Position numbers and translations under genes: made by a program. A model generated the notes under the pieces. It did no database searches. It was not told the DNA's origin and saw only the letters and a list, made by a program, of their open reading frames with translations. From a virus: a stretch of 64,000 nt of DNA. The stretch is taken from positions 1 through 64,000 of IMG/VR virus record IMGVR_UViG_3300027917_000033. The stretch is one strand, 5' to 3'. Shown here in pieces: positions 1,642-50,083 of this stretch (positions are counted from its first letter, which is position 1; each line of letters starts with the position of its first letter).

Positions 1642-1652
1642 GAGCGCTGGCC

Positions 1653-2718: not shown

Positions 2719-2786
2719 TATGTTCAAACTCGACGACATCCGAGTGGACTGATCTGGGCCACCCACCACTTGAAAGGGGGAGCACG

Positions 2787-3811: not shown

Positions 3812-3841
3812 TTCCTAGAAGTATGGAATTCGAGGTACATA

Positions 3842-3994: not shown

Positions 3995-4006
3995 CAAACA
4001 TAACAT

Positions 4007-4967: not shown

Positions 4968-5445
4968 TGAAGGAGGTGTCCGTGTGCCCACATGATGATT
5001 TCGACATCTTGTATGAAGATGAATTCTATGAAATTGTAGTAAGAAAATGTAAGGACTGTGGGCAAATCGAAGTAAACGCGGAGTGGGCTGATGTCGAGTG
5101 GCTCAGGTCCATTATAGCTGATATAGATTGATAATATGAAGCTTAATACACTATACGAAACGCTGGGTTCGGATTACCCAAGAGAAACAGTTATACGAGC
5201 ATTGTATAAATACCTTGTTGATAATGGTATCCCACGGTCGAAGATTGACGATGGTTTGTCCGCAGTCCTATATATTGGCGGAAGTCCTGGATCTTCGCCA
5301 CGTCGTAATTATATCAGGATTATCGACCCTGAAGATCACATTATTCATGTGGCGTATCATGGGGATCGTCCTCATTATTTAGCATTAGAAGTCGATATAC
5401 ACGATCCAGATTCTTTCCCAAAGGTACTTGAATTCGTCAAGGCAC
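4848..5445 (+). repeat. Identical 70-bp direct repeat (4848-4917 and 5376-5445)
   Basis: Both copies encode YLALEVDIHDPDSFPKVLEFVKA in different genes. Confidence 0.95.
4982..5131 (+). CDS. Small zinc-ribbon-like protein (49 aa)
   Basis: aaggaggtg RBS; CPH...CKDCG. Confidence 0.6.
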   Translation: MCPHDDFDILYEDEFYEIVVRKCKDCGQIEVNAEWADVEWLRSIIADID

Positions 5446-5801
5446 GTAAAGACGTGGTCGGTGAGTCGTTATATGAAGATCACCCATTACTGATCAACTT
5501 GATTGCCCAATATTTATTGGATAACGGAATCAGAAGCGAGAAGCTGGGTTCTTTTGGTAGCGCCCAGCTAGTCGTACCACCTGTATCACGCGCATCTCTG
5601 AAGTCTCCAGGTTTGCCATCTCGCCAGCAGATCAGGATTTGGGCTTTTGACAATGGGTTAATAGATGCCATCCATTATACCAATCCCAACATCGCCTCAC
5701 CTTTCAGGGTGCATTTGAACGTTCATGATCCAGGTAGTCTGGAAAAGTTGAAAGACTTCATCATGAAATTCGAAGATGTTTGGACGGCAGCTATAGCGTG
5801 A
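5136..5801 (+). CDS. Two-domain DPxS-motif family protein
   Basis: MKLNTLYE; YLVDNGI and YLLDNGI; DIHDPDSF and NVHDPGSL. Confidence 0.85.
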   Translation: MKLNTLYETLGSDYPRETVIRALYKYLVDNGIPRSKIDDGLSAVLYIGGSPGSSPRRNYIRIIDPEDHIIHVAYHGDRPHYLALEVDIHDPDSFPKVLEFVKARKDVVGESLYEDHPLLINLIAQYLLDNGIRSEKLGSFGSAQLVVPPVSRASLKSPGLPSRQQIRIWAFDNGLIDAIHYTNPNIASPFRVHLNVHDPGSLEKLKDFIMKFEDVWTAAIA

Positions 5802-6178
5802 AGCTATACACGCAGCTAATCTATGAATTTCTAAAAGAAAACGGAATCCAGTCTTATCATACGACAATTCTTAACTATGATTGCATTTTCATAACGATGG
5901 ACCCCCACTTCGCGGCAGAAGATTACCCTGGGGGATTCTTCAGGACCAACGAGTATAGTGCGATAGGGATATGGCCAAATGACAACGGTGTGGTGACGAT
6001 GGAATATGAAAATCCAGATTATAAGCCAGCTAGGACACTTCCATATGGCGGTGTCCGCCACATACACAAGTGGTATCCAGACACGATGGATGTCAACATA
6101 CATGATCCTAACAGCCTACAGGAAATACTGGCATTCATCAAGAAGTACCCAGACACATTTGATAGAAACTATACATGA
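5798..6178 (+). CDS. DPxS-motif family protein (GTG start)
   Basis: FLKENGI; NIHDPNSLQEILAFI. Confidence 0.8.
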   Translation: MKLYTQLIYEFLKENGIQSYHTTILNYDCIFITMDPHFAAEDYPGGFFRTNEYSAIGIWPNDNGVVTMEYENPDYKPARTLPYGGVRHIHKWYPDTMDVNIHDPNSLQEILAFIKKYPDTFDRNYT

Positions 6179-6462
6179 AACTCAATAACTTGTCAGAATC
6201 AGACGCCGAAAGGGCAAACCTGACATTGAGGGTGATCTATATGTGGTTGTTAGAAAACGGATGGTATGCTAATGCCATCAATATGCATGATTGGGAGAAT
6301 GTAATATTGTTTGATAATATCAGCATAGAAATAGATTATGACGGGGATGTACAAGCTATAACTAATGAAGAACCACATCACAGTATATATATTGATTTAC
6401 ATGATCCACAATGTTTTGGCAAATTAGCTGAATTCCTTAATGAGTACGAGCCAAAGAAATGA
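6175..6462 (+). CDS. DPxS-motif family protein with MKLxxLxE leader
   Basis: MKLNNLSE; WLLENG; DLHDPQCFGKLAEFL. Confidence 0.85.
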   Translation: MKLNNLSESDAERANLTLRVIYMWLLENGWYANAINMHDWENVILFDNISIEIDYDGDVQAITNEEPHHSIYIDLHDPQCFGKLAEFLNEYEPKK

Positions 6463-6788
6463 ATATAATCGCCGGGCAACTAGATTTTAGGACAATTACG
6501 ACTTGCCTGAAAGAATATCTTAATGACAATGGCATCACGAGGGTAATAACAGTAGGTGAGAATCTGTTAACATGCGCAGACCTGACGATATCTCTTAACG
6601 GGTATAGCAAGGAGATACAAAACAGTTCTTGGGCAACCATAGAAATATTTGATGATGGAAAATATAAACTGGTCATAGTTGTACGCCGTAGAGACCGATA
6701 TAGTAATGAGATCAATTATGGCTCTGTTTATGATCCTGATAGCTTTCCTAAGATACTTGAATCTATAAAGAAGCGCTATGAAAATTAG
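6459..6788 (+). CDS. DPxS-motif family protein
   Basis: YLNDNGI; SVYDPDSFPKILESI. Confidence 0.85.
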   Translation: MNIIAGQLDFRTITTCLKEYLNDNGITRVITVGENLLTCADLTISLNGYSKEIQNSSWATIEIFDDGKYKLVIVVRRRDRYSNEINYGSVYDPDSFPKILESIKKRYEN

Positions 6789-7488
6789 CGAGTTATACGA
6801 ATCGACACTACTATGGAGTACTCCCAATAATCGGAGAAAGGTGAACGCTTGGGCCAAAGCTATCAGTGAATACCTCAAGGAAGAAGGTTTCCCGGCGCAC
6901 CGCCCATGTATAGATGAGATAGTGGTCGCCAAAGAATATGGAACCCACCCCCACACTAGAATAGTTGTAAACACAGATGGGCAAATAAGTGTGTGGCACG
7001 TGGGGCCTACCACAAAGCCATTTGAAGTGTCTATTTACGATCCGGACAGCTTCGAGATAATAAAAGAGTTCGTTAGTCGCTACAAATATGACCTTATAAT
7101 AAGTCGTGACGACTGGGTACGAGGACGAGGGCCTGTCGCCGAAGATACATGGCAGACAATGGCGGCAAGTTCAGAAGCGCTCGCCGCTTTAGCGTCATAC
7201 CTAGAAGATGATGGTTTTTATATAAAATCTCTTGTGCCATGGCGCACTATCACTGGCAGCAAAGGTCACTATCTCAGTGTGTATATGTCACCAGAAGAAA
7301 GCCGACGGGCAGAGTTTTTTAGACTAGTAGTAAGTTTACCAGATGATTCGCTAAAAGCAAGAATATACAGGTTGGGACCTGCTGCTCAACATTTATACGG
7401 AGAAATGTCAAACATGTTATTTGACTTGGCAGAACCGGGTTCATTCCGAAAAATAGCAGCAAGAATGCGCGAGCTGGCCGGGTATTAG
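6778..7488 (+). CDS. Two-domain DPxS-motif family protein
   Basis: MKISELYE; YLKEEGF and YLEDDGF; SIYDPDSF and DLAEPGSF. Confidence 0.85.
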   Translation: MKISELYESTLLWSTPNNRRKVNAWAKAISEYLKEEGFPAHRPCIDEIVVAKEYGTHPHTRIVVNTDGQISVWHVGPTTKPFEVSIYDPDSFEIIKEFVSRYKYDLIISRDDWVRGRGPVAEDTWQTMAASSEALAALASYLEDDGFYIKSLVPWRTITGSKGHYLSVYMSPEESRRAEFFRLVVSLPDDSLKARIYRLGPAAQHLYGEMSNMLFDLAEPGSFRKIAARMRELAGY

Positions 7489-7502
7489 TATTTTAAATCC
7501 TA

Positions 7503-7772
7503 ATGGGTTGTACTACTGCATCATGTATCCGTATGCTTGTAGAAGAACTGGGTTTACGGTGTTCAGAAATCCGTCCCCCCACGTTGCTTAACCCATGTCT
7601 ATATATCTATAAACGTGGCCAAGCTCCTATCATGTGCCACATAAGAGATAATGGCAACATTGACCTAAAGGCGACATATAGCAAAATAACCGTCAATATT
7701 TATGACCCAGAGTCGTTCCCTCGCATTAAAAAATTCATAGAAGCGGCGTTCTCCTCGCGCTACAAGTGGTGA
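7503..7772 (+). CDS. DPxS-motif family protein
   Basis: NIYDPESFPRIKKFI. Confidence 0.8.
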   Translation: MGCTTASCIRMLVEELGLRCSEIRPPTLLNPCLYIYKRGQAPIMCHIRDNGNIDLKATYSKITVNIYDPESFPRIKKFIEAAFSSRYKW

Positions 7773-7830
7773 TCCGATAAACACTTCATAGAAAAACTAA
7801 TCTCTGATAATAAACCAACAAAAATAGAGG

Positions 7831-8001
7831 ATGGTAAAATTTGGAAGAATCTTGTGCTTCTTTGGCTTGCACGATTGGGTGGAGAGCAATTGCCCGATCC
7901 GCAAAAAGCTTGGTAGAGGATATTTTGTATACTGGGAATGTACCAGATGCTCTACTAGGGCTATTTCGTCTGGTGACAATACCAAAGTTATTGAGCACTA
8001 A
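7831..8001 (+). CDS. Small Cys/His zinc-finger-like phage protein (56 aa)
   Basis: LCFFGLHDW...ECTRC; gagg RBS; caaaaatag upstream. Confidence 0.6.
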   Translation: MVKFGRILCFFGLHDWVESNCPIRKKLGRGYFVYWECTRCSTRAISSGDNTKVIEH

Positions 8002-8132
8002 CAATGATGTTACGCCAATATTCAGAAGAAGCAAATAAAGTTATTGAAGACGGATGCAAAACGAGGCCAGCGGCGAGGGCATGGAGTGCAAGATCGACAA
8101 GCATTCCCAAAAGCATTGAATTGGCTTAAGAG

Positions 8133-8489
8133 GTGGATCACAAAGCCGTAGGTTTGTATCATTGTATGTCGCTATTGCATGATTATCTTGGGGAAAATGG
8201 GATAAAATGTAATTTATTTACACCAAGGGACATAATTGTTAATTTCAGCAAGAATGCCTCAGCGGTGGTACAAATTAGTAATAATGGAAAGATTTCTATA
8301 CACTCCACACATACTAAACTAATCCAACACTCCACACATACTAAACTAATCCAACACGGTAAATCGCGTCCACCAATCTGCGGCACCACCACCAGTATCG
8401 TATTAGCAGAGTTTGATATATACGATCCGGGAAGTTTCCCAGAAGTGTCTGCACAATTAAAGCTAATGGCTAGCATAATAAATGATTGA
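8133..8489 (+). CDS. DPxS-motif family protein with internal 9-aa duplication
   Basis: YLGENGI; DIYDPGSFPEV; HSTHTKLIQ twice (8301-8354). Confidence 0.85.
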   Translation: MDHKAVGLYHCMSLLHDYLGENGIKCNLFTPRDIIVNFSKNASAVVQISNNGKISIHSTHTKLIQHSTHTKLIQHGKSRPPICGTTTSIVLAEFDIYDPGSFPEVSAQLKLMASIIND

Positions 8490-8796
8490 TGAAGTAGAAG
8501 CAGTATTGGAAAGCCTGTGTGCCTGGTTGGAAACGGAGGGGATTGCAGCTATTTATTCTAAAGTGTGGAAGCAGATCCACATAGTAGACGTCACAGGATC
8601 GGTGATTGTCGCAATAATTAGAATGAGTTACGGAGGCGACGGACCATGGCTGTCAATCAAAAATGATTCGGTAAGCTCGCTGATGCCTTTTGGCAACGCT
8701 CCATATACCAATCAGAGTATATCATTGTTTGAACCGGATGCTTTCGAAAAAGTGGCAAAATCATTAAAGATTTCTTTGAAATTTAATAGAAAATGA
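8482..8796 (+). CDS. DPxS-motif family protein
   Basis: WLETEGI; SLFEPDAFEKV. Confidence 0.8.
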   Translation: MIDEVEAVLESLCAWLETEGIAAIYSKVWKQIHIVDVTGSVIVAIIRMSYGGDGPWLSIKNDSVSSLMPFGNAPYTNQSISLFEPDAFEKVAKSLKISLKFNRK

Positions 8797-9062
8797 AAGC
8801 GTACGACAGAATTATATCAAAGTCAGAGAAATTAGCAATGGTAGGCCAGTATGTGGAAGACCATGGTTACGTTGTTGAAGATTCTCCAATTGAAGGTTAC
8901 ATAAAAGTTACCTACGAGGACTACGTTGTTGCCATGATAGGCGACAAAACTGGTTCAGAAGTGCTTGTACTGGGTGATGGAGCGAGAACGTTCAATATCG
9001 CCAATCCAAAATCGTTACAGCAAATAATTAAACATATTAGCAAACTCAAACGTAAACTGTGA
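8793..9062 (+). CDS. DPxS-motif family protein
   Basis: YVEDHGY; NIANPKSLQQII. Confidence 0.75.
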   Translation: MKAYDRIISKSEKLAMVGQYVEDHGYVVEDSPIEGYIKVTYEDYVVAMIGDKTGSEVLVLGDGARTFNIANPKSLQQIIKHISKLKRKL

Positions 9063-9439
9063 AATTAAAGCATTTACATGAAGACGTTTCCGACGTCCAG
9101 ATCGTAATACATACAATATATGAATACTTGAGTGAACGAACTGGCCGCCCAAGAGAAGTGCCATTGTATCCATCTAAACCAGATATTGAAGGTACAGGCA
9201 ATGCAACACTTAACGTTTATAGTCCTGAAGGTTGGCTAATCACAACATTTGTTGTGAAGGACGGGACTTTTGTCTATGCACGAGGGCCGTGGGGCAGCAG
9301 AGTTCCTGGGGGACATTTCAACCTAGCGGATCCAAATTCGTTAGAAGAAATGAGGGAATTATGCTATAATATATACAACGGAAAGAAAAAGCGATCTTAT
9401 GGAAGAACACGACTAAGGCCTAGGCAGGGAACTCCTTGA
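9059..9439 (+). CDS. DPxS-motif family protein with MKLxxLxE leader
   Basis: MKLKHLHE; NLADPNSLEEM. Confidence 0.85.
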   Translation: MKLKHLHEDVSDVQIVIHTIYEYLSERTGRPREVPLYPSKPDIEGTGNATLNVYSPEGWLITTFVVKDGTFVYARGPWGSRVPGGHFNLADPNSLEEMRELCYNIYNGKKKRSYGRTRLRPRQGTP

Positions 9440-10701: not shown

Positions 10702-11697
10702 TTAATCCCAGTCTTTTTCGAGTGGCTCCGAATATGTAATATCATCCATTCTAATAGTCGGGATATACTGGCCTGCCACCTCAAGTTCCAGTATCCATCC
10801 ACCAATGACTGGGTGCAGCCCCAGCCGCTTCAAGAAAGTATTCTGTGATTCAAAGCACGGAACCATGTATGCTTTGACATCTAGATAATCGATGTAAAGC
10901 ATACTATGAAGATGCCCAGCGGCTAGAATCTTTGGTCTGGCTTCTGGCGTCAAACTCTCAATGAATTTCTGCAGCTTATAACTCAGGGCGTAGGATTTAC
11001 CGCCCATAGGGTGGTGCAGATACATCTTGATATCATCTGTCAGATTCACGTACGCACCTGCCTGACCTAAATACTTCATGTCGTTACGGGCATCGGCAAG
11101 AGCGTGGCCGATATCGGCCCCACCCCTCTGGTACCATGACAGATCGTGGTTGCCTGTTATGAAGTACGTCGTAATTCCGGCTTCATTTGGATAGTACTCG
11201 ACACCATACTCAAGAGCACTATCGAAACCGGCGATAAAAATTTCGTATTCTTGCCCCCGGTACACCTTGCCATCACCAGCAAAAATGTCACCTGAGTGGT
11301 ATACCTTGGTAACACCTGCATCAGAACATCTTTTATAAAAATCTTTTAGGTGTGTCAGTTGCTGGTTGTGGCTGCACAGATGTGTGTCACTTACCAGACC
11401 GATCCGATGCACGGTGCCGGATTTCAATTTGTGGTCGAAGATCTGGTCCTCTGGCCTGTCAAGATCAACCTTATGGATGAAATATCTTCCATCTTTGTCT
11501 TGTTCTACAGCGACGTTGATCTTAGCCAAATCCACCAACATGGCATTCAAGCCTTTAGGTGGCACATTCAGCTCGTTGCACAGGCCATTAAAATCGTGCT
11601 TTGGCTTTTCGAGAAGAGCAATGAGCTTTTCTCTTGGTGTCTGCCTCGACTTGGGCTTCGAGGCAGCTACGGCCTTCTTTCTTTTCTTGCTAGCCAT
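10702..11697 (-). CDS. Calcineurin-like metallophosphoesterase with N-terminal HTH-like region
   Basis: SDTH, SGD, GNHD, HP, GHLH motifs. Confidence 0.85.
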   Translation of the reverse strand: MASKKRKKAVAASKPKSRQTPREKLIALLEKPKHDFNGLCNELNVPPKGLNAMLVDLAKINVAVEQDKDGRYFIHKVDLDRPEDQIFDHKLKSGTVHRIGLVSDTHLCSHNQQLTHLKDFYKRCSDAGVTKVYHSGDIFAGDGKVYRGQEYEIFIAGFDSALEYGVEYYPNEAGITTYFITGNHDLSWYQRGGADIGHALADARNDMKYLGQAGAYVNLTDDIKMYLHHPMGGKSYALSYKLQKFIESLTPEARPKILAAGHLHSMLYIDYLDVKAYMVPCFESQNTFLKRLGLHPVIGGWILELEVAGQYIPTIRMDDITYSEPLEKDWD

Positions 11698-17261: not shown

Positions 17262-18234
17262 CTAAGTTACATTTATCTGCTTCGTTATAATACCCAAACG
17301 CTTCGAACATCGTCTGTATCCTGCTGAGGTAAGTATGCTTCCTTATCACCTCTGATCTTAATTTTATAGCCTGAGCCTGTCTTTCCTCTGGCGACATTTT
17401 AATATATGTATCACATAGGTCCATGTAGTTATCTGGGTCTGTTGCTAGCGGTAGAGCGTCGGACGAGAAAAATCTGTCGATACCATGCACTGGGTCTGAA
17501 ACTGCAAGTGCTCCACTAGCTGCAACTTTGAATATCCTTTCTGGAATATCTATACCATATTTCGTGGTGTGTGGTTCTACAACACATGGACATATTTTGG
17601 CAGAATTGAACAGTGACTGCACCTGGCCCTGTGAAGCCTTTCCTTTCCATAAATCCTTAGGGCCACTCCACCCAAGCCAAATCGTTTTGTATTTCCTCGC
17701 TACGGGCAATAAATACTTGTCCATATTTATTGCCTTATATCCCCAGTATCCGCCTACCCAACCGACATCACAGACTAAATTTGGAACGGTTGGGCCAGGA
17801 GCATACAGCGTTGTATCAGCCGCATTTGGCATCCCAACAATGTCTATGTCATGGTCCCTCTTCCATCTATACCACCACTGAACCATATCATCTTGTAGAC
17901 CATATCCAAAAACAAATATCGGATTCTGCGCCAAAGTCCATTTTATCGCATCAGCACTTTCGTTGATAACTGGACCACCTGGAACCTGCATAACTTCATC
18001 ACAATACGGGTTGACATGGATGGCTACTTTTGCCTTGTGTCCGCGTGGGAGTTGTTGACGCCACCCAGAACAACCAATATAAATATCAGGAGGATTCCTG
18101 TCCCAGGTGTTTTGGTCGCCGTCCCATAGCAACGGCTTGTGGCCCATTATTCTTAACGCATTACACCATCCCTTCGCTATTTCAAAAAATGCGCCGGACT
18201 TAGAATTGGTTACAAATACGGTGAGTTTAGACAT
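17239..18234 (-). CDS. GT-B glycosyltransferase (CgeB/GT4-like)
   Basis: NAAD...DVGWVG, ERIFKVAASGA, HTYLSRI. Confidence 0.8.
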   Translation of the reverse strand: MSKLTVFVTNSKSGAFFEIAKGWCNALRIMGHKPLLWDGDQNTWDRNPPDIYIGCSGWRQQLPRGHKAKVAIHVNPYCDEVMQVPGGPVINESADAIKWTLAQNPIFVFGYGLQDDMVQWWYRWKRDHDIDIVGMPNAADTTLYAPGPTVPNLVCDVGWVGGYWGYKAINMDKYLLPVARKYKTIWLGWSGPKDLWKGKASQGQVQSLFNSAKICPCVVEPHTTKYGIDIPERIFKVAASGALAVSDPVHGIDRFFSSDALPLATDPDNYMDLCDTYIKMSPEERQAQAIKLRSEVIRKHTYLSRIQTMFEAFGYYNEADKCNLVISKIGI

Positions 18235-20131
18235 ATTTCCCCGCTTCTGAATATTTTGCTTTAATTTGTGCCACTAAATGATTTAAATACTCTAGCCTAC
18301 TCATGTCCCTGTTTATAGCTTTTAGTAAGTCTTTGTTTCGTGCATGCCTATCATTCCACCCTGGAGTTCTTGAATGCCAGAGATGGAACATATCAACAGA
18401 ACGTGTATTGAAGAATCTGGTATTATCCTTCAGTCTTTCGAAGAAATCGCAGTCTTCTACACCATACCCCTCAAATGCTTCATTGAAACCACCAACTTTA
18501 TAATAAAACTCTTTCTTGAAGGCTATTGATCCGCCCTCAAAATACCCAACTGCCCTCTCGCAGTTATATCCTCTACTAAGATTGCCAATCTGGCACATAT
18601 GCAACGTAGATTGCCGATCAAGATACAGGACTTTAGATCCGATATGGCATGAATCAAATCTTATTAACACATCAACAATTCGTGCCACGTAATCTACTGG
18701 AACGATTATGTCAGCATCGTGTAAGATCACGTTTTCGTACGATGTAGCAGAAACTGCAGCGTTGAAAGCTTTTGATTTATTAAAATCCTGGTTTGGTCTC
18801 TGATTGGCAACAAACATGTAACGGAATGGTTCACCTTCTTTGCCATTAAATCTTCGTTCTTGATCTTGTTCTACCACAATGATTTCTATTTCTGGATATC
18901 TCTGTGCTTTAATGTTTCTGATCACCATATTGACGCAGTCTGATCTTCCAATATCTCTTACCGGTATGACTACTGATATGGCAGGAACATTGGCTTTTGA
19001 CGTAGCACTTATGTGAATTCTGCTTTTATCATTGCGCAGATTAGCATACTTGGCCTTGTTCTCCCTAAGGTGCTGCCCCTTTGTAATCAATGCAGATTTT
19101 TCTCTATGTATGGCAAAGAACCTGTCAGATCCTTCTACGTCGTGGAACCCGTATGGCTGTAACCCGGCAACACCAACCCTGTTTGACCAGTCCACATGTT
19201 CCATGCCATACTGGCTTAAAGCTTCATCGAAATAACCAACTGCATCAAACGCTTTGTCATCAAAAGCCATTACAGCACCATGCGGCTTGTCGGTTACTGA
19301 ATATATTATTTTGCCATTGACTGATTTCTTCTGGCTCTGCTGCCTTGACGCACCGTGCAATCCTTCTTGGCGATAACAGAAATGATGGTACCCAGTATTC
19401 TGCATTGCTTCAAAATAGAATCTCTCCCAAGCGTGTGATAGAATTTCGACATCGTCATTTAATATGATTTTGTATTTAAACCGTTTTAAACAATTCATTA
19501 GCCGGTTTGTGTTGCCAGCTATGCCAATATTTGTTGAATTCTTTAATACTATGATGTCTGGCTGTTTGTCCAACCAATCTTTTAAGCTTTCATTTGTTGA
19601 TCCATCGTCGCTTATAAATATAGTCGTCCTTGACAGATCTGTGTACTTCCTAATTGAGCCAATTAATCTCTGTAGCGGCTTTAACCTGTTAAAGCTTAGA
19701 ACACCGACACCTATTCCATCACTTATCGCCACCTGTACATCTTGAACAGCTTGATTGTAAAGATCCGCAGCGTGACCCAGTGCTTTACCAACTATTGGTT
19801 TATTGCCAACGTATCTGGACCTCCCGCTTCTTACCCCCCTGAATGATTTCTTGACAACCTGCCTAGCCCTTCTAACCGTCCTCATCGACTTCTGTTTTTC
19901 GCCCATCACCCTGATATTTGGTACCTCTTGGACGACATTCATCTGTGGTGGTGATAGATTGTCTTCACCAAGAATTCTGACGACTCTTAGAAATTTTGGT
20001 GTGTATCGATCGATGAACCAGTCTGATAGGACTATTTTAGAGAATTTTGATACCCTTACCTGTTCCCTGTTGGGACCGACGATTTGAATAGCGTGTGGAT
20101 TCGGATTAACATATTCTACTAGTCTAGCCAT
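18227..20131 (-). CDS. Double GT-A (family 2-like) glycosyltransferase
   Basis: SDDGS, LNDD, YGMEHVD; second domain ISVVIP, HDAD, GGFNEAFEGYGVED, HLWH. Confidence 0.85.
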   Translation of the reverse strand: MARLVEYVNPNPHAIQIVGPNREQVRVSKFSKIVLSDWFIDRYTPKFLRVVRILGEDNLSPPQMNVVQEVPNIRVMGEKQKSMRTVRRARQVVKKSFRGVRSGRSRYVGNKPIVGKALGHAADLYNQAVQDVQVAISDGIGVGVLSFNRLKPLQRLIGSIRKYTDLSRTTIFISDDGSTNESLKDWLDKQPDIIVLKNSTNIGIAGNTNRLMNCLKRFKYKIILNDDVEILSHAWERFYFEAMQNTGYHHFCYRQEGLHGASRQQSQKKSVNGKIIYSVTDKPHGAVMAFDDKAFDAVGYFDEALSQYGMEHVDWSNRVGVAGLQPYGFHDVEGSDRFFAIHREKSALITKGQHLRENKAKYANLRNDKSRIHISATSKANVPAISVVIPVRDIGRSDCVNMVIRNIKAQRYPEIEIIVVEQDQERRFNGKEGEPFRYMFVANQRPNQDFNKSKAFNAAVSATSYENVILHDADIIVPVDYVARIVDVLIRFDSCHIGSKVLYLDRQSTLHMCQIGNLSRGYNCERAVGYFEGGSIAFKKEFYYKVGGFNEAFEGYGVEDCDFFERLKDNTRFFNTRSVDMFHLWHSRTPGWNDRHARNKDLLKAINRDMSRLEYLNHLVAQIKAKYSEAGKYV

Positions 20132-42814: not shown

Positions 42815-43618
42815 TTATCTGTATCCGAAGAACTGGTTAAAGAATGAATGCGATCTCATAATGTGCATTACTACTGTTGGGTTGATTATATTCTTCCATT
42901 CGTCCATAGGTGGAGCCTTGACTTCTCCGCATCCCTCGTGCGGGAATTTATGCAAATAATACGCATCTGGGTCGGTTGAGGTATTTTCTACGTTTTTGAA
43001 ATCATGTTCGTAGTAGTCTTCTTCCAATATGTCATAAATTTCGCGCATCATTGCGTCCGGTCGATCTACCAATCTTTCATACCTTACAAAATTAACTGGC
43101 AATTTACGATTTATGATATCGTAAATGCCGTTCAGGGGTCCGCCGACGATCCCCTGATTGCTAAACGCAAATTCTGCCCTTCCCATCATCGTCTTGCGTT
43201 CGCTGTTTTGTGCATAATCGAATAGTGGATTTTTACGATGCTGTTTTTCTATAGACGCGAATACCTCACGTAAATCTCTTATCATAACTAATATTTTGCT
43301 GTTTGGGTACACCCGTCTCAGCGGCATAACTAAATGAGTCCACCCACGGCTTTTGTCAAATATTACAGCCCTGTCGTCGTTTCTCGCGTGCCAATTATCC
43401 GAGAATGCGCGCAAAGAACGTTCGAGGCGATCTTCTGTGCCTTTACGATCAGCGTCTAGATCACCTTTAACTTCGAAAGCGTTGCTCCACGTGTTTATTA
43501 TGTTGTTCCATATAAGTGGCAACGCACTGGTGCTAGTCGCCCAGAATTTTGGGTTTTGGTTCAAGATATTACACAGGAGTGTGCTTCCACTCCTAGGCAG
43601 GCCGGTTATGACGTGCAT
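42815..43618 (-). CDS. Sulfotransferase
   Basis: GLPRSGSTLL (5'-PSB loop), DKSR, RDLREVFAS (3'-PB), RYERL. Confidence 0.88.
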   Translation of the reverse strand: MHVITGLPRSGSTLLCNILNQNPKFWATSTSALPLIWNNIINTWSNAFEVKGDLDADRKGTEDRLERSLRAFSDNWHARNDDRAVIFDKSRGWTHLVMPLRRVYPNSKILVMIRDLREVFASIEKQHRKNPLFDYAQNSERKTMMGRAEFAFSNQGIVGGPLNGIYDIINRKLPVNFVRYERLVDRPDAMMREIYDILEEDYYEHDFKNVENTSTDPDAYYLHKFPHEGCGEVKAPPMDEWKNIINPTVVMHIMRSHSFFNQFFGYR

Positions 43619-43949: not shown

Positions 43950-44345
43950 TTCCCACCAACCGCATCCCACTAACTAAAGAGTTGGTGGTTAGAAGGGCGA
44001 CTCTAAAAGTTTGGAAGACCGAAATGAAGGTCGGAAAACCAATTTCTTAAAGATGCTACCTTCGCGGCGGTACCTAAACGGGTCTACGATTGTTTCCTTC
44101 GCTTTCCCGACCCATTGGAGGCTCAACCGCCGGGTGCCTTCACACCCGAAGCCCAGAGGCCATCTCACGATGCTGACTGGTCCCAGTTATGAACAGCGAA
44201 ATTCACTGGGGAGCACTCGGTCCCAATAGGATTTTACGACATCTTTTGATGAAGGCCCGACGTGAACTGGTTGTTTAAAGCCTAACCCGCACAAGCGTCC
44301 GTGGGTCAAGCGGGCACCACGGAAGAACGTTTTGAACGGCTTCAA
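43950..44345. ncRNA. Candidate structured non-coding RNA (family unknown)
   Basis: ~400-nt gap without credible ORF; nested stems and an H-type pseudoknot (44286-44323). Confidence 0.5.
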
Positions 44346-44387
44346 CTTAGATACATTTGACTGACGAACGCGCAAAAATAGCGTAGA

Positions 44388-44876
44388 ATGAAACTAAAAT
44401 CATTGTATGAATCTGAGTCTGATGAATCTCGCATAAAACGACTTCGGGATTCTGTAACAATACCATCATCTAAAAATATTTATAATGACATGATCGGAGT
44501 GTCGGAAAGACTGGCGATAGTTGGGCAATATTTAAGTGATTGGGGCTTTCCAGTTGACCCAGTAAGTAAACCATCAACTGGTCATCCCCCATTCATACGG
44601 GTATGGAATAATGAACACAAAACCGGTGTCGTTGCAATATCTGTTAGAGCATTGGTATCGGGTTATAAAGTATTTGGGATTCCTACAATTGGCCCATCTG
44701 AAGTGTTTATAGAAAAACTTGGTAGCAATATGCGAAGAAAGTCAGCGAATCTGTGGGCCAAAAAAGTCGATTTGGCTAAACCTAATGCACTGCAAACAAT
44801 AAAACAAATAGTCGAAGAAATGGTTTTTCTGCCAAACCAAAGACGTGATCATTTAGTGGACCCAGATGAATCCTGA
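44388..44876 (+). CDS. DPxS-family protein with MKLxxLxE leader
   Basis: MKLKSLYE; ERLAIVGQYLSDWGF resembles 8793 ORF; DLAKPNALQTI. Confidence 0.8.
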   Translation: MKLKSLYESESDESRIKRLRDSVTIPSSKNIYNDMIGVSERLAIVGQYLSDWGFPVDPVSKPSTGHPPFIRVWNNEHKTGVVAISVRALVSGYKVFGIPTIGPSEVFIEKLGSNMRRKSANLWAKKVDLAKPNALQTIKQIVEEMVFLPNQRRDHLVDPDES

Positions 44877-45390
44877 AGAAATAGCCAAGTTGATCACGGA
44901 AGATCCCGACGTCTTCGAAGACTGGGATGAAGCTGATATAGGATTGGTGGAAACGATGAATCCAGAGGATATAGCCAAGTTGATCACGGAAGATCCGGAC
45001 ACTCCGGACATTCTGGATCTCGTAAGTCAAAAATTATTCGAATTAGGCTATAGCCACGAGAACAGGTGGGGCGGATTATTGATTCGCCCTGAGCAGCTGA
45101 ACATCGAAGGCGTAGAAGACTGCGAAGGGCTTTATATCGAAGATAAAGGCCAAGCCAACATTAACATGATCATGATAGACAAGAACGCGCCTGAGGCTTT
45201 CGGTCCTGGAGACTTCACGCCATGGTGGTCGGGGACCTTCCTGAAGAACATCTGGCGTCGACCAACAGGTTACTTTGACTATTGGTATCCATTGAATTTG
45301 GCTGATCCCGAAGAATATGAAGAATTTGAAGAAATTCTTAAATGGTCGATGGAAGATTGGAGAGGCTATTGGAGACTGGGTCAACTGTGA
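44866..45390 (+). CDS. Protein with two ITEDPD leaders and a DPxS-like domain
   Basis: MNPEEIAKLITEDPD, MNPEDIAKLITEDPD; NLADPEEY. Confidence 0.85.
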   Translation: MNPEEIAKLITEDPDVFEDWDEADIGLVETMNPEDIAKLITEDPDTPDILDLVSQKLFELGYSHENRWGGLLIRPEQLNIEGVEDCEGLYIEDKGQANINMIMIDKNAPEAFGPGDFTPWWSGTFLKNIWRRPTGYFDYWYPLNLADPEEYEEFEEILKWSMEDWRGYWRLGQL

Positions 45391-46229
45391 ACCCTAAAGA
45401 TATAGCCCGGATGATTACTGAAGACCCGGATATGACGGAAGATATAGACGACCTGACAATATTGGGGTGGTTCAAAGAATATCTTGAAAATAGCCCGATT
45501 ATTGCGAAGGCTTTTGAACACGGTCGCTTTGGCAAGTTCATCAGGTACGATTTTGAAAACTTTGGGCCTGTCCAGAGCAAACCGTGGGTGCGTCTCAATA
45601 TAACGACATCTGCACACAGTGGCGCTGTAATTGTACACAATGGCAAACTTGAATTATTTAATTATTTCATGCCAAAAACGCGCATCGTAGACTTGGCTGA
45701 TCCGAACGCATTTGAACGTGCTACAGAGATTATAGTAGAGCTATTGTTCGCTGGTCCTGCTCGTCGGGCTTTCCAGACAGAGGAAATGAATCGCCCTGAC
45801 CCAGAAAATACAATCAGGTTGGTCGAAGAAGACCCGAACGCTAAGTCTATAGAAGAAATAGCGAGTGAGGTGCGTTTAAAGGCAAGCCAACTAGGGATTG
45901 ATCTTCCACCGACATCGGTCATGTGGACAGATAAAGACACTAGTCATTATGATTTTAAAGATATCTATATAAGCCAAAGGGATGCTGATGATGCATTTGC
46001 GATTGTGGCGCACGAATATGGACACGTTTTGTATGATATGCTGTCAAAAGAACAGCAAGACATGTGGTTTGAGTTGGTGAATAAAGAAGTCTTCAATGGC
46101 AAATTATATCCTGCCCATGGTGACGAAGTTTTTGCTAGAAGTTTCCAACACGTGATCGCAAATGAGTCAGAACCAGCTTATGAAGCTGCTAGAGATGCAT
46201 TTTTTAAAATAATGTCATATGAATCCTAA
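45387..46229 (+). CDS. ITEDPD leader + DPxS domain + zincin metallopeptidase domain
   Basis: GTG start coupled to prior stop; DLADPNAF; HEYGH...DEVFA. Confidence 0.75.
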   Translation: MNPKDIARMITEDPDMTEDIDDLTILGWFKEYLENSPIIAKAFEHGRFGKFIRYDFENFGPVQSKPWVRLNITTSAHSGAVIVHNGKLELFNYFMPKTRIVDLADPNAFERATEIIVELLFAGPARRAFQTEEMNRPDPENTIRLVEEDPNAKSIEEIASEVRLKASQLGIDLPPTSVMWTDKDTSHYDFKDIYISQRDADDAFAIVAHEYGHVLYDMLSKEQQDMWFELVNKEVFNGKLYPAHGDEVFARSFQHVIANESEPAYEAARDAFFKIMSYES

Positions 46230-46953
46230 AGACATAGCTCGGCTGATCACTGAAGATCCTGATATCTTTAACGAAGACTGGGAAGAATTAGGCATCGAAG
46301 ATCCATTTGCTATTGATGAAGACGAAATTAAAAAGAAATGGACTGCGGCATTAATGGATGCGATGGGCCAAGAATGGGCGTCAATACTAAATGAGAATGA
46401 TAAGGAGCAGATCCTTGCTGATCAAGATAAGTTCGTAGAGATATTAAAATATGCTAAGGAGGTGGCAGAGAAAAGATACCCGCAGTATACTGTAGACGAG
46501 TATTTGCGTAATGCCGCCATATCTGTGGTGGCTTTCCAGGTGAACATGAGAACGCCCAAGAAGGCTCCTCCAGAAACTCCGCCAGAGACGAAGTATACGG
46601 TTTTCCTCTCAGACCCAGAAATGATGCTGGAATTAACCACCAACCCGCAAAACTGGAAGAATTACATAGCGATTATCAAAAGAGAGCTAGGAGACGGTCC
46701 TTATTATTGGCAGCAATTTGATTCTGATACTGGAATGTTATACAATGGACTTTATGCTTACCCAGTGCCAGACGAGCACGTGCTGGAATATTATGACGTA
46801 TGGTGGATGTATGTAAATATTATCGAAAAAATAACAGACCCTGAAGAGATTGCCAATACCATACCAGCAATGGGCGACTATAACCTAGGTGGCATCGTGG
46901 TATTCAAAAACATGAATGATTTGCTTACTAGGTGGGAGCCACTTAGTTTATAA
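46219..46953 (+). CDS. ITEDPD-leader hypothetical protein
   Basis: MNPKDIARLITEDPD. Confidence 0.8.
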   Translation: MNPKDIARLITEDPDIFNEDWEELGIEDPFAIDEDEIKKKWTAALMDAMGQEWASILNENDKEQILADQDKFVEILKYAKEVAEKRYPQYTVDEYLRNAAISVVAFQVNMRTPKKAPPETPPETKYTVFLSDPEMMLELTTNPQNWKNYIAIIKRELGDGPYYWQQFDSDTGMLYNGLYAYPVPDEHVLEYYDVWWMYVNIIEKITDPEEIANTIPAMGDYNLGGIVVFKNMNDLLTRWEPLSL

Positions 46954-46976
46954 AGGCCGGGTTATCTGGCCTTTTT
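46952..46976 (+). terminator. Rho-independent terminator
   Basis: aaaggccgg-gttat-ctggccttttt. Confidence 0.7.
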
Positions 46977-46986
46977 ATGAGAGAAT

Positions 46987-47712
46987 ATGGAACCGATAGA
47001 CATAGCTCGGCTGATTACGGAAGACCCGGATATTGCAGCCGATTTCTTTCATGGATACAGATCGTATGGCGACAGAACCAATATGTTGAGGATTTTGGAA
47101 AATGGCATAGCCGTCCCAGATACTATGGAAACATATTGGAGTTGGGATCCTATTCTTTATTATTGGTATAACAAAGACGCAACGCCGGGATATAAGAAAG
47201 GGAGACTTGTTGGTAATATCGTAGAGGTAAGGTTCACAGAAAATGATCCGAACGTGGGTGGTTTTGGGGATGGCCAGCCTCTATATGCGTATATGGTGGC
47301 TAGAGACAAAGAGTGGGTTGACAAACATCATATGGCTAAAGCGGAAAATCTACTAGACGAATTACCACCTGCAATGAAAAAATCATTCCTAGACCTGCAG
47401 CAGCAAATTACAGGAGATCCAAAATGGCGTGGTGATTGGATGTTTGCTGGCATTTTGCCTGACTACCACAAACAGGCAGCTGTTGATTGGTTTAGAGATG
47501 CAAGACGATACTTGTCGGCAGTTGGTACGGCATCTAGTCATGAATTTAATTATGTTGGCCCTATCATTTCGTTTGGTGACCCAAATAATACTTCAATAGT
47601 TGGTATTTACGAATTATACAAAGATACCGGAGAAATCTACAAGGCATATTATACTTGTGGATTGTCGAAAATCGGATCGGACCTTTTCGCGTCACACAGA
47701 AAAACAACATGA
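46987..47712 (+). CDS. ITEDPD-leader protein, possible ADP-ribosyltransferase fold
   Basis: MEPIDIARLITEDPD; FFHG...ILENGI...YWS...HEF. Confidence 0.55.
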   Translation: MEPIDIARLITEDPDIAADFFHGYRSYGDRTNMLRILENGIAVPDTMETYWSWDPILYYWYNKDATPGYKKGRLVGNIVEVRFTENDPNVGGFGDGQPLYAYMVARDKEWVDKHHMAKAENLLDELPPAMKKSFLDLQQQITGDPKWRGDWMFAGILPDYHKQAAVDWFRDARRYLSAVGTASSHEFNYVGPIISFGDPNNTSIVGIYELYKDTGEIYKAYYTCGLSKIGSDLFASHRKTT

Positions 47713-47819
47713 AGAAGCCAATTGAAGTTAAGCCGCAGCCAATTAGTTATGGCTGTGTAGGATTGGCTTTATTTGCACTGGCGGTTATCATCACAATTGT
47801 TATTGGGATTTATCTATGA
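47709..47819 (+). CDS. Small membrane protein (36 aa)
   Basis: ATGA-coupled on both sides; one hydrophobic helix. Confidence 0.55.
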   Translation: MKKPIEVKPQPISYGCVGLALFALAVIITIVIGIYL

Positions 47820-48247
47820 ATACAAAAGACATAGCCATGTTAATCACTGAGGATCCAGATGTGGCCGAATCGCTAAGAATACTCATTTTAGATGATGATC
47901 CACATCCTGATGACCCAGACAACTTTTCAAAAGCTGGCCAATTCAGAATTAAGGCATTCAAGAAGAAGTTTATCGGGCATGTTGTTAAATGGGTTAGAAC
48001 CGCTGAACAGGCTATAGATGAACTAGCAAACAACGACTGGGATGTGTTGTTCCTGGATCACGATCTTGGTGGCGAAATATATGTAGATTCTGGGCCTGGT
48101 ACAGGTTACGAAGTGGCCGTGTGGCTTGAGAAAAACCCAGACAGACAGCCACCGCAGATATTCTTACACAGCCTAAATTCTGTTGGTAGGCAAAATATGC
48201 AAGCGGCCTTACCAAATGCAACGCAAACGCCGTTCGCGTGGAAATAG
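47816..48247 (+). CDS. ITEDPD leader + cyclic-phosphate-processing-type receiver (cREC) domain
   Basis: ILILDDD, VRT, LFLDHDLG, TGYEVA, HSLNSVG. Confidence 0.8.
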   Translation: MNTKDIAMLITEDPDVAESLRILILDDDPHPDDPDNFSKAGQFRIKAFKKKFIGHVVKWVRTAEQAIDELANNDWDVLFLDHDLGGEIYVDSGPGTGYEVAVWLEKNPDRQPPQIFLHSLNSVGRQNMQAALPNATQTPFAWK

Positions 48248-48284
48248 AGGCAAAGATAATTTATGAATACATTGTGTGCGAAAC

Positions 48285-48692
48285 ATGAATGATATTAAGA
48301 AAATAGCAGGCCTGATCACTGAAGATCCTGATGTGATACAGGAAACCGGTTTATCAGATTTGTATGAACAAGAAGCAGAATTATTAAAAGCATTATGGGG
48401 ATACCTTGAGGAAGAAGGGATCCAAATGGAGGCCGGGTCTCATCTAACTCGTGGTGTGCCAAAAGGTATGACCAGGCATCCTGAAACTGGGCCGCAATTG
48501 TGGAGAAGATCTCCAAATGGTAGGATTGATATCTGGAAAACACCAGGGCGACTGGCAAAGAGTGACCACGATTACACTGCATCTTACGATGCCGGGTGGT
48601 CATCTAAAGGGCGTTTATATTTTAGATTCAATGTATGTGACCCGGAATCGTTCCCAAAGGTTAGGGATTTCATTTTAAAGCATACAACATGA
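48285..48692 (+). CDS. ITEDPD leader + DPxS-family domain
   Basis: IAGLITEDPD; LSDLYE; YLEEEGI; NVCDPESFPKVRDFI. Confidence 0.85.
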   Translation: MNDIKKIAGLITEDPDVIQETGLSDLYEQEAELLKALWGYLEEEGIQMEAGSHLTRGVPKGMTRHPETGPQLWRRSPNGRIDIWKTPGRLAKSDHDYTASYDAGWSSKGRLYFRFNVCDPESFPKVRDFILKHTT

Positions 48693-49048
48693 AACCAGAA
48701 GACATAGCGAAAAGAATCACTGAAGATCCTGATGTGATACAGGGAATGCCAGATTTGGTTGTGCCATACACCCTGTTTGACGATGATGATTATGAAGTTG
48801 CGGTGTCTGTCGGTGGCGATTTAGACGATACAATGCTCCAGGACATACTGTTTGCCAAAGAAAAACGTACTGGCAGACTATTGGATGGTGACGAATTTGC
48901 CAGTTTGAACGCTGCTGAGGGCATAGATTATATAGGACAACTTGAAGATCGGATTAACGAATATTATGCAGATGCTGGGATGATAGACGACGTCGATGCT
49001 TATAAACGCACTAAGGAAGACGAATTACTTGGAAGACACGGATATTGA
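48689..49048 (+). CDS. ITEDPD-leader acidic hypothetical protein
   Basis: MKPEDIAKRITEDPD; very D/E-rich. Confidence 0.8.
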   Translation: MKPEDIAKRITEDPDVIQGMPDLVVPYTLFDDDDYEVAVSVGGDLDDTMLQDILFAKEKRTGRLLDGDEFASLNAAEGIDYIGQLEDRINEYYADAGMIDDVDAYKRTKEDELLGRHGY

Positions 49049-49425
49049 AATTGCCGGTGTTATATGAAGAAATAGACAAGGCTAGTTATGATGTAGCAGA
49101 ACTGCTCGTAAAATTTTTGCAAGATGTTAAACTTCCTGGCAACCCTGAAATAGACAGCCACTCTCCCCCGTGGCGGGCTGGCCGATCGAGTGCTGCTGCT
49201 GTAATTACAGTTAGAGCACGTATTGCATGGCGTTTTCAATTTCAAGCACTTGCTAGAATAATTGTGTATGATGATGGAACGATTGACCTGGCAACTGGAT
49301 TGTGTAAAAAGGGCGATATGGTACCAAGGATTGGCGCGAGTCATTGGCAATATAATTATTATGACCCAAAATCATTTGGGAACATAGAGAGACGTCTTAA
49401 AGAGTTGTTCGGTAAATATTTTTAA
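49045..49425 (+). CDS. DPxS-family protein, paralogue of second domain of 1996-2718
   Basis: VAELLVKF...LPG, IIVYDDG, GLC, IG, NYYDPKSF. Confidence 0.8.
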   Translation: MKLPVLYEEIDKASYDVAELLVKFLQDVKLPGNPEIDSHSPPWRAGRSSAAAVITVRARIAWRFQFQALARIIVYDDGTIDLATGLCKKGDMVPRIGASHWQYNYYDPKSFGNIERRLKELFGKYF

Positions 49426-49432
49426 TATAGCA

Positions 49433-49490
49433 GGGGCGAAGCTCACGAAGCTTCGCCCCCTGGTGTTGATCTCCGACGATCAACACCTTT
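49433..49490 (+). terminator. Two tandem hairpins, second followed by ttt
   Basis: ggggcgaagct/agcttcgcccc and ggtgttgatc/gatcaacacc. Confidence 0.65.
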
Positions 49491-49515
49491 AGCACCCCGT
49501 TTTAATTTTGATGTT

Positions 49516-49728
49516 ATGATATTATGGGTACTGATGGATCCGAAGAATATGTCTCCGGTACTTCCGGGCTCAACTTGGATATATCGCGGTCTGATGATCT
49601 TTGTTGTCGAAAGTTATGCAATAGATGACGAATGGATCATTACTGCGGTAACTAGGGATGGAGATTCGATGGTTATTTCTACAAATATAGAGAAATGGCT
49701 TGAAGATGCCGATTATCTGGAGACATAA
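49516..49728 (+). CDS. Hypothetical protein
   Basis: Short ORF in + run. Confidence 0.55.
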   Translation: MILWVLMDPKNMSPVLPGSTWIYRGLMIFVVESYAIDDEWIITAVTRDGDSMVISTNIEKWLEDADYLET

Positions 49729-49729
49729 G

Positions 49730-50083
49730 ATGGTTGACTTTGTGCATCCGTTCCCAGGCAAGAAACCAGGTGACAAAATCACGAAGCAAGAGCTGATTAG
49801 TGCTCTTCGCCTGTCACTATGTGCTGAAGAAGAAGCAACTCATCTTTACGACACAATAGCCGAATATACAGATGACGAAAGAGTCAAAAAAGTCATGAAG
49901 GATGTGGCCAATGAAGAACAGGTACACGTTGGCGAATTCCAAAAATTATTAGATCTCATGGAAGATGACGAAGAGGAGAAAGTAGGGGAGGGTAAGAAAG
50001 AAGCCGAAGAGAAAATAGAATCTATACAGAAACAGATAGCAGATTTTATCACAGAGGACCCGGATTGGTCCGTTAGTAAATAA
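49730..50083 (+). CDS. Ferritin-like (rubrerythrin/encapsulated-ferritin type) protein with C-terminal ITEDPD
   Basis: AEEEATHLY...DVANEEQVHVGEF di-iron pattern; QIADFITEDPD at end. Confidence 0.82.
   Translation: MVDFVHPFPGKKPGDKITKQELISALRLSLCAEEEATHLYDTIAEYTDDERVKKVMKDVANEEQVHVGEFQKLLDLMEDDEEEKVGEGKKEAEEKIESIQKQIADFITEDPDWSVSK

Follow-up and report, generated by a model that had tools for sequence, protein, structure and literature searches.

The DNA analyzed here (the window) comprises bases 1 to 64,000 of the 87,842-bp IMG/VR virus record IMGVR_UViG_3300027917_000033 (G000), which holds 157 open reading frames (ORFs) in all and has a CheckV completeness of 24%, implying a genome of about 360 kb. 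According to our analysis, a run of plus-strand genes at 44.4 to 50.1 kb holds a cassette in which eight proteins carry the same short peptide, here called the tag, at one of their termini. The tag is portable and almost always N-terminal, and the sequence comparisons presented below suggest that it is probably a capsid-targeting sequence (CTS) of the T4 kind, with a new sequence, in an uncultured clade of giant phages of the T4 superfamily. The sequence family of the tag, the scale on which it is used, its use at either terminus and its presence on a protein of the EncFtn type appear to be new, since no description was found in the literature, supplementary files not being covered, and a text search for "ITEDPD" gave only an unrelated paper.

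The tag in the window

The six-frame translation of the window contains EDPD nine times, always on the plus strand and always inside IAxxITEDPD. The degenerate DNA pattern ATHACNGARGAYCCNGAY matches the whole 87,842-bp record nine times in the forward and never in the reverse direction, and the reversed pattern, used as a control, matches in neither, so that a chance origin of the nine exact same-strand copies was ruled out. Eight copies, of the form M-x-P-x-D-I-A-x-L-I-T-E-D-P-D, start at 44866, 44956, 45387 (with GTG), 46219, 46987, 47816, 48285 and 48689, and the ninth, IADFITEDPD, occupies 50036-50065, at the end of the 49730-50083 gene. The tag is thus N-terminal in seven of the eight tagged proteins, one of which has a tandem pair, and C-terminal in the eighth. 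These copies are as listed in an earlier note on this DNA, which also mentioned a degenerate internal copy, IRLVEEDPN; this is present on the plus strand inside the 45387-46229 gene, at 45813-45839 rather than near 45786.

When the nine copies are compared in pairs over their eight conserved residues (288 comparisons per codon position), the first two codon positions agree in 100% of cases and the third in 52%. This pattern shows selection on the peptide, in line with the note, which had concluded the same from codons that vary while residues are kept. It also rules out conservation at the DNA level only, in the form of a repeat or mobile element. BLASTP comparisons among the 157 ORFs link the tagged proteins only through their first 16 to 39 residues. 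However, their description as eight unrelated passengers holds for six, since a domain that we call DPxS, recognized with a local paralog-family profile, is common to the 48285-48692 protein (E = 1.8e-8) and the N-terminal half of the 45387-46229 protein (E = 1.3e-4).

The logo of 187 unique tags reads M-[DN]-P(132)-[KE]-x-I(177)-A(187)-[RK]-[LMF]-[IL]-T(180)-E(172)/D(15)-D(187)-P(187)-D(186)-[VIE]-h-N(97)-E(109), with residue counts in parentheses and h for a hydrophobic residue, and five to seven residues precede the Ile in 186 of them. We propose that the tag forms a short amphipathic helix, with I, A, L and I on one face, closed by the invariant Asp-Pro-Asp.

The tripeptide ITE, present in all nine window copies, was said in the earlier note to fit the [LI]xE protease consensus, and it does match T4 cleavage sites. 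The prohead protease gp21 cleaves after [L/I]-x-E. In the T4 record, gp23 reads FLTE↓AEIGG at residue 65, which agrees with the 65-residue propeptide given in PMC9026906, Alt starts with MELITE, IPII and IPIII read MKTYQEFIAE, and the leader of IPI, for which PMC9026906 states a length of 19 residues, ends in TITE. In the major capsid proteins (MCPs) of the clade that carries the tag, the junction [IL][LF]E↓D[AQ]TTT immediately precedes the start of the Pfam Gp23 match, and its P1' residue is Asp, like that of ITE↓D.

Distribution of the tag beyond the window

An exact-pattern scan of IMG/VR gave 59 matches at 41 loci on 28 contigs, several of which have 5 to 10 copies. In 48 of the 56 unique tagged ORFs from these loci and from the complete relative G001, IA lies at most 8 residues from the start codon. 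When a profile of 53 tags was compared with 1.84 billion representative proteins, 216 were found at E ≤ 0.001, and as such representatives are less than 50% identical to each other, these amount to more than 200 different passengers. Among the best 150 of the 216, the tag lies in the first 14 residues in 144 and further in in 4, of which three follow an in-frame Met and look like mis-called starts; the other 2 are spurious. Motif search and passenger catalogue across databases thus uphold the portability that the note had claimed. One complete genome has at least 16 tagged genes, and those of G001 are scattered over 90 to 365 kb.

The passengers are diverse. Pfam recognizes 13 families in the 58 tagged proteins from the window and IMG/VR, including cREC_REC, NUDIX, AAA, AAA_33, Rubrerythrin and PARP, and 13 in 137 of the 150 representatives (the set omits five window proteins, six proteins shorter than 55 aa and the two spurious ones), including GYF, HTH, zinc ribbons, PARP and an RNAP-alpha-CTD-like family; in both sets each family is found on tagged proteins in a single member. 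One family of 261 to 298 aa (P0053, P0057, P0073 and P0107) has the tag at both termini, around an acidic middle rich in Pro, Gly, Glu and Met. It was not found in IMG/VR or in the loci examined, and the members of its clusters are all unnamed or "hypothetical."

No near-identical phage was found in GenBank, and tblastn with a 30-residue tag gave no match among GenBank phages, for which the low-complexity filter is possibly responsible. Five contigs (L014, L028, L030, L034 and L044), two of which (G008 and G010) hold T4-type head genes, share an identical ORF of 30 codons that consists almost wholly of the tag (MNPEEIARLITEDPDLNVDIRDNNWWVITV).

This distribution bears on two further explanations. 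A recombination handle or a functionless remnant of recent duplication would be in line with the adjacency of the genes, the single tandem duplicate and the codon ATA for the first Ile in 9/9 window copies. ATA is the commonest Ile codon here (808 of 2,047), and in other phages the codon of this residue varies (25 ATA, 13 ATT and 10 ATC). Against such an origin stand the codon pattern described above, the retention of the tag on 216 clusters and across records whose proteins are 25 to 56% identical, and the scattered positions of the tagged genes in G001; codon pattern and distribution together already largely refute this explanation, which we regard as highly improbable.

In cellular genomes the tag is at chance level: 596 Gb of bacterial and archaeal genomes contain 31 single matches against about 20 expected by an arithmetic estimate, all of them internal, and the M-x-P-x-x-IA context is absent from all 31. 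In three related Bacteroidota/Cytophagales loci, a Met stands two residues before IA. Two of the 31 matches are BrnA antitoxins (PF14384, E = 1.7e-22 and 8.8e-16), in which ..TDEDIAxxITEDPD.. lies just before the PF14384 domain with the spacing seen in the tag (L085, 2483-2794; L091, 7096-7419; both on the minus strand). The tag might accordingly be a borrowed BrnA-antitoxin-like N-terminal motif that binds, for example, BrnT-type toxins or partners; no solved structure was found for this comparison. However, the number of chance matches expected in that scan, the lack of any PF14384 match among the window proteins and the absence of an obvious reason why upwards of 200 unrelated proteins should carry such a motif make this explanation very improbable.

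An EncFtn-type passenger with the tag at its C terminus

The gene at 49730-50083 (plus strand) encodes a 117-aa EncFtn-type protein in which an acidic linker and the tag IADFITEDPD, followed by WSVSK, form the C terminus. The earlier note had taken it for a ferritin-like protein, rightly so (Rubrerythrin, E = 2.6e-7; EncFtn by profile). In the PDB, the EncFtn profile matches Pyrococcus furiosus EncFtn (5n5e, E = 2e-23), the P. furiosus virus-like particle (2e0z, E = 5e-23) and Myxococcus xanthus EncC (7s8t, E = 5e-13) and EncB. The AlphaFold2 (AF2) model of the passenger (pLDDT 81.7) consists of two long helices, with 5n5e as the top Foldseek match (E = 3e-5). An identical protein is encoded on a 261,688-bp contig.

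Cellular homologues were represented by 246 relatives, of which 80 were kept and 10 inspected. All 10 end in a PTIGSLK-type encapsulin loading peptide (..[TS][IV]G[DSPA][LM][KR]..), and in 8 of them the EncFtn gene is followed by an ORF with an encapsulin-like N terminus, which in the 3 tested is Linocin_M18. The window protein instead ends in IADFITEDPDWSVSK, which is not the loading-peptide consensus. Among 26 fetched phage-type homologues, 70 to 89% identical in the core, 9 end in ..S[IV]SPxDIAxLIxD, a tail that equals the first half of the tag and stops exactly at the ITE position; 2 have the full tag and then a further domain, 2 distant ones end in the loading-peptide-like SVGSMKQ and SIGNMKS, and the remaining 13 show looser half-tag variants or other tails. 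Judged by alignment position, the tag stands where the encapsulin loading peptide stands in the cellular EncFtn homologues. Linocin_M18, the encapsulin family, had no match in five phage records, as opposed to matches in 3 of 14 control genomes, so that the capsid would be the only HK97-fold shell at hand. A wider IMG/VR search for EncFtn relatives gave nine loci, none with tags in the flanks.

Head genes of the related phages

The type of phage was approached through relatives of the window record. Thirty-one of the 157 G000 ORFs have a match, at 25 to 56% identity, in G001, a record of 395,473 bp that has direct terminal repeats, and one colinear block joins 17 to 65 kb of G000 to 141 to 198 kb of G001. 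The head genes of G001 follow a T4-like order: large terminase, portal, a 1,083-aa acidic protein, a gp21-like protease, two charged proteins and a gp23-like MCP. Its large terminase ORF (245643-249056; 1,137 aa) is lengthened downstream of the ATPase motifs by a long insertion, which by eye resembles an intein.

Ten tag-bearing phage records were checked for a gp21-type protease and a gp23-type MCP. A full-length Gp23 match is present in six (G001 to G004, G008 and G010; E = 1e-78 to 1e-82), and the same six have a Peptidase_S77 match, which in G002 is split and below the Pfam cutoff. Both records of at least 98% completeness carry MCP and protease. The rest are fragments, 15 to 41% complete, except G009 (82%), which has neither gene and whose only "tag" is a non-canonical internal match. 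The nearest MCP among GenBank phages, at 41% identity, belongs to an unannotated 595-kb "uncultured phage."

Tagged genes also occur inside or close to these head modules. The MCP gene of G003 is followed by three tagged ORFs on its own strand, and that of G001, after 1.6 kb, by a tagged ORF of 81 aa. G002 has a 259-aa ORF that lies between the protease gene and the gene preceding that of the MCP; it starts with ..LIDQVAMLLTEDPT.. and ends with ..VSQIAALLTDTLNY, corresponding to a tag-like N terminus and a half-tag C terminus.

Further observations concern the head proteins. MCP and prohead protease share a starting peptide, MLP[TS]R[RS], in G002, G003, G004 and G008 (MCP and protease, respectively, at L226 3389-4978 and 5834-6571; L227 12421-14232 [frame] and 10827-11576; L228 12555-14174 and 10947-11729; L230 11791-13428 and 8293-10215). 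After this peptide the protease reads ..LIAETG.., with an IAE site like that of the T4 CTS. Small ORFs of 164 to 193 aa, apart from the MCP gene, contain a segment resembling the first 40 to 50 residues of mature gp23 (..FT.P.IRKVYP..), at 80602-81096 of the window record (beyond the window), 123937-124068 of G001 and 8616-8768 of G011.

The tag as a proposed capsid address

All the indirect evidence favors the core idea of the earlier note, which we consider probable: a peptide address that would bring various proteins into the capsid. The window record itself lacks head genes. We hold to this idea because of the N-terminal position of the tag on more than 200 clusters, the T4-type head genes of those tag-bearing records that are complete enough, the identity of ITE with known gp21 sites, the replacement of the EncFtn loading peptide and the tagged genes inside the head modules of relatives. 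According to the mechanism that we infer, the tag would dock its carrier on the assembling prohead, either on the core or scaffold or on the inner face of the gp23-type shell. Proteins as diverse as cREC, NUDIX, PARP-like, zinc-ribbon, HTH and DPxS-domain proteins and the EncFtn ferroxidase would thereby be enclosed, the gp21-type head protease would then probably trim the tag after ITE and/or the next hydrophobic-x-Glu, and some of the cargo at least would leave with the DNA at infection. The cREC, Nudix and PARP/ADP-ribosyltransferase (ART) domains are discussed as counter-defense or host-hijacking enzymes of jumbo phages in PMC7824862, which would fit cargo acting early after injection.

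Several points weigh against a T4-type CTS. The window record contains no protease or MCP gene, its only Gp23 match being one of 13 bits to a 164-aa ORF, so that its phage type follows only from synteny with G001. Among the GenBank matches listed, no annotated MCP of a named phage exceeds 29% identity to those of the clade. TEDPD tags are absent from G007, a complete relative of 320 kb that has EncFtn and gp21. The eight tagged window proteins are all net acidic, while T4 internal proteins are basic. By eye, the tag is unlike MKTYQEFIAE or MKTFKEF... beyond h-x-E, and its invariant Ala (187/187) and Asp-Pro-Asp (187/187/186) lie outside the leader proper, unlike in the T4 CTS. The candidate P1 Glu is kept in 172 of 187 tags and replaced by Asp in 15 (8%), and a second site, V-h-x-E, which may be the real or an additional cut, follows DPD in only about 100 of 187. 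In T4, Asp at P1 blocks processing and not targeting, as PMC9026906 describes it. Since the invariant residues lie outside or after the ITE cut and Glu-to-Asp changes are tolerated, a binding element is likelier than a bare cleavage site, and the strict invariance of Ala and Asp-Pro-Asp leads us to hold "address" more firmly than "cleaved at ITE."

Start contexts add to these points. In G001, 24 ORFs of 40 aa or more are preceded by the context CAAACNTA-N4-ATG (CAAAC[ACG]TA-N4-ATG), which contains no Shine-Dalgarno sequence; at least 11 of these ORFs are tagged, whereas the head genes have ordinary AGGAGG-type Shine-Dalgarno sites; the timing of the two sets may therefore differ, and the tagged genes may be an expression class of their own. 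The context, examples of which lie at 91673, 94050, 107186, 121535, 282594 and 290059 of G001 (L055 to L074) and at 4007, 9059 and 44388 of the window, may be a promoter for leaderless or short-leader mRNAs. A gene-free leader (43966-44387) before the plus-strand gene run of the window ends in ...GCAAAAATAGCGTAGA-ATG, which resembles it. The T4 late promoter TATAAATA was rejected as a shared signal, with 5 window matches against 4.5 expected and none upstream of a plus-strand tagged gene. In some G001 start contexts, TATATTTG was seen about 20 nt further upstream.

Alternatively, the tag could dock proteins on a partner other than the prohead, such as a phage hub or assembly factor, a membrane site, a host chaperone, a protease adaptor, a clamp or RNA polymerase, so that tagged proteins would meet in the infected cell and not in the virion. 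The invariant Ala and Asp-Pro-Asp and the tolerated Glu-to-Asp change look like a binding motif, the tagged genes of G001 have a start context of their own unlike that of the head genes, some cargo has hydrophobic, membrane-like segments just after the tag, and the cassette lies among replication and repair genes, not head genes. However, such docking leaves unexplained why the EncFtn tag occupies the exact position of the encapsulin loading peptide, why tagged genes lie inside the head modules of G002 and G003, and why ITE↓D is like the MCP maturation junction, and we consider it unlikely.

With one or two gp21-type hydrophobic-x-Glu sites in the tag and several enzymes among the passengers, the tag might also be a signal for maturation or turnover only, that is, an inactivating pro-sequence or an N-terminal degron that addresses nothing. 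Yet most passengers have no recognizable enzyme domain (13 single-member Pfam families among 58 proteins and 13 among 137), and the C-terminal half-tags end exactly at the putative cut and could not be removed; nor would a degron be expected to stand at both termini or to keep DPD so strictly. We deem this explanation improbable.

If the tag is a capsid address, a plain motif would name the packaged, and probably injected, proteins of a whole uncultured clade of giant phages. Candidate factors of host takeover or counter-defense would be provided by 216 protein clusters or more, almost none of which has a recognized domain, cREC, NUDIX and PARP-like proteins included, and the CTS principle, which in T4 covers three or four proteins, would be extended to dozens in each genome. 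The tag might also serve to load large capsids with foreign proteins. An EncFtn protein re-addressed to a phage head would bear on the proposed kinship of encapsulins and HK97-fold capsids and raises the question of the role of a ferroxidase inside the virion.

A protein in the scaffold position

A tentative lead, which we think doubtful, concerns the docking site. The tag could be a copy of the capsid-binding end of the protein in the scaffold position, with passengers docking on the inner face of the HK97-fold shell like encapsulin cargo. In 6/6 records, the gene that directly precedes the MCP gene, and that corresponds in position to T4 gene 22, encodes a conserved charged protein with a C terminus like half of the tag, ending in ..[PSGA]DIAxx[MV]D[ED]DLI, ..IDKIASEMTED or ..ISAIADMVD (L077 446-1249, L226 5018-5740, L227 11643-12380, L228 11792-12508, L230 11045-11758 and L211 11929-13038). 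The tails read ..IPDIAKDMDEDLI, ..ISDIAAQVDEDLI, ..IGDIAEGMDEDLI, ..VADIAEIMDDDLI, ..MIDKIASEMTED and ..PISAIADMVD, each up to the stop codon. They resemble both the first half of the tag (..DIAxLITE) and the tails of phage EncFtn proteins (..SPxDIAxLIxD and ..DIDKIADEI). The six proteins are orthologous and hence count as one or two observations of small statistical weight, with a background of 39 among 1,198 ORFs for IA..h in the last 16 residues.

In G007, IAD occurs in the last 14 residues of seven proteins against 1.5 expected, a motif chosen after looking; the seven include the scaffold-position protein, EncFtn and the neighbor of EncFtn. An enriched N terminus of G007, MHWLMDITKEQL, was considered as a portable tag and discarded, as it belongs to a paralog family. 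The scaffold-position protein has no PHROG function, and its hhalign probability against T4 gp22 is 0.2%; for lack of a detectable likeness to gp22, its scaffold role is assigned by gene position only. If the lead is true, the phage head would double as an encapsulin-like compartment with a ferroxidase and represent a living link between scaffold-shell and cargo-shell recognition.

Genes of the cassette

All genes described here lie on the plus strand unless stated otherwise. The run begins with an untagged DPxS-domain protein of 162 aa (44388-44876; family profile, E = 3.8e-5) whose N terminus reads MKLKSLYES. It is followed by a 174-aa acidic protein (44866-45390) with the tandem tags (44866-44910 and 44956-45000) and without a known domain. 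The 280-aa product of 45387-46229 comprises a tag (45387-45431), a DPxS domain (about 45474-45740), the degenerate tag and a C-terminal domain. For the zincin of the earlier note, only a HEYGH motif at 46011-46025, in this last domain, and a Peptidase_M78 match below the cutoff (E = 0.019) were observed. The 244-aa protein of 46219-46953, without a known domain, begins with an extended tag, MNPKDIARLITEDPDIFNEDWEELGIEDP, and the extended form NE[DG]WEELGIEDP recurs in many database matches.

The possible ART of the note (46987-47712) found no support: this 241-aa tagged protein, whose fold is not recognized, has no Pfam family at E ≤ 1 and no usable Atlas match (Atlas model pLDDT 0.30), the PARP-domain matches being on tagged proteins elsewhere, outside the window. 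Its cREC assignment proved correct: the 143-aa tagged product of 47816-48247 is a cREC receiver-type protein, with the domain at about 47882-48211 (PF20274, cREC_REC; 69.9 bits against a cutoff of 27; E = 3.1e-19). The 119-aa tagged protein of 48689-49048, with the tag variant KRITEDPD, is very acidic (31 D+E versus 12 K+R). Between these two lies the 135-aa tagged DPxS-domain protein (48285-48692; tag at 48285-48332). An untagged DPxS-domain protein with a TTG start and the N terminus MKLPVLYEE (49045-49425; family profile, E = 1.4e-14) precedes the EncFtn gene. On the minus strand, at 42815-43618, a gene of the sulfotransferase family (Pfam Sulfotransfer_3, E = 1.3e-16) was observed next to the upstream end of the cassette.

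The DPxS domain, of about 100 residues with the motifs YLxENGI and hDPDSFxK, occurs in some 30 ORFs at E ≤ 1e-3 in 88 kb, some of which encode two-domain proteins. These paralogs lie mostly at 454-9439 of the window, with others at 44388, 45474-45740, 48351-48683 and 49045 and, in the record, at 72795, 78227, 83349 and 86879. In the AF2 model (pLDDT 86.3), a five-strand sheet is preceded and followed by a helix, and the N-terminal MKLxxLxE is disordered. The domain matches no family in Pfam or PHROG, and Foldseek gave nothing in the PDB at E ≤ 0.001; the weak top Foldseek rows include the T4 MotA C-domain, with TM scores of 0.41 to 0.44.

N termini of the type M-[KR]-L-x-x-[LI]-x-E, such as MKLKSLYE, resemble short leaders of the T4 style. 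They were seen in the window at 1222, 1999, 4605, 5136, 6175, 6778, 9059, 20523 (minus strand), 44388, 49045 and 52821, and in L230 at 17885-18565. These N termini alternate with the ITEDPD tag on homologous cores, both in the DPxS family and in a pair of G002 proteins, in which the 259-aa tagged protein is 37% identical over 218 aa to a 226-aa paralog starting with MMRLRTISE. MKLxxLxE was also considered as a second portable tag: in G000 it is N-terminal in 10 of 157 ORFs versus 1 of 622 internal Met residues, mostly within one paralog family; outside it the enrichment is weak (5 of 594 starts versus 3 of 2,694 internal Met residues in G001).

Comparison with known systems

Three known systems resemble the proposed address. 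In encapsulins, as in the EncFtn passenger, a short peptide follows a flexible acidic linker at the C terminus of an EncFtn-family protein, at the same alignment position, and is presumed to address an HK97-fold shell. The two differ in sequence, ..DIAxLIxD or IAxxITEDPD versus ..TIGSLK, in the mostly N-terminal position of the tag and in the lack of Linocin_M18 from the five phage records.

Giant phages of the phiKZ-like group (SPN3US, phiKZ and 201phi2-1) have ejection or inner-body proteins with long N-terminal propeptides, according to the account of their heads in PMC5694885. As described there, head proteins are processed after Glu by a gp21-related protease, and the diverged paralogs gp53 and gp54 have identical N termini that are thought to be CTS-like, both of which recall the tag. 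However, these propeptides mostly exceed 100 residues, have the motif A/S/G-x-E, belong to another lineage and, in what PMC5694885 reports of them, have not been shown to be portable across unrelated proteins.

The closest parallel is the T4 CTS. The earlier note knew of no description of such a peptide, which overlooked that the T4 CTS, carried by otherwise unrelated internal proteins and by Alt, is of this kind (PMC3012670 and PMC9026906). According to the latter, the T4 leaders of 10 to 19 residues direct their proteins to the prohead core and are removed by gp21, and Alt loses propeptides at both termini. The tag differs in that its invariant A...DPD runs past the putative cut, in that it is also found internally or at the C terminus and on acidic passengers in the window, and in scale, with the 16 or more tagged genes of a single complete genome and 216 clusters overall. 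Nevertheless, the tag shares with the T4 CTS a short N-terminal peptide (10 to 20 residues) on otherwise unrelated, fast-evolving proteins, which ends in hydrophobic-x-Glu (..ITE in T4 IPI, MELITE in Alt, LITE in the tag); the relatives carrying it have genes for a gp21-type protease and a gp23-type MCP, and the double-tagged family recalls the propeptides at both termini of Alt.

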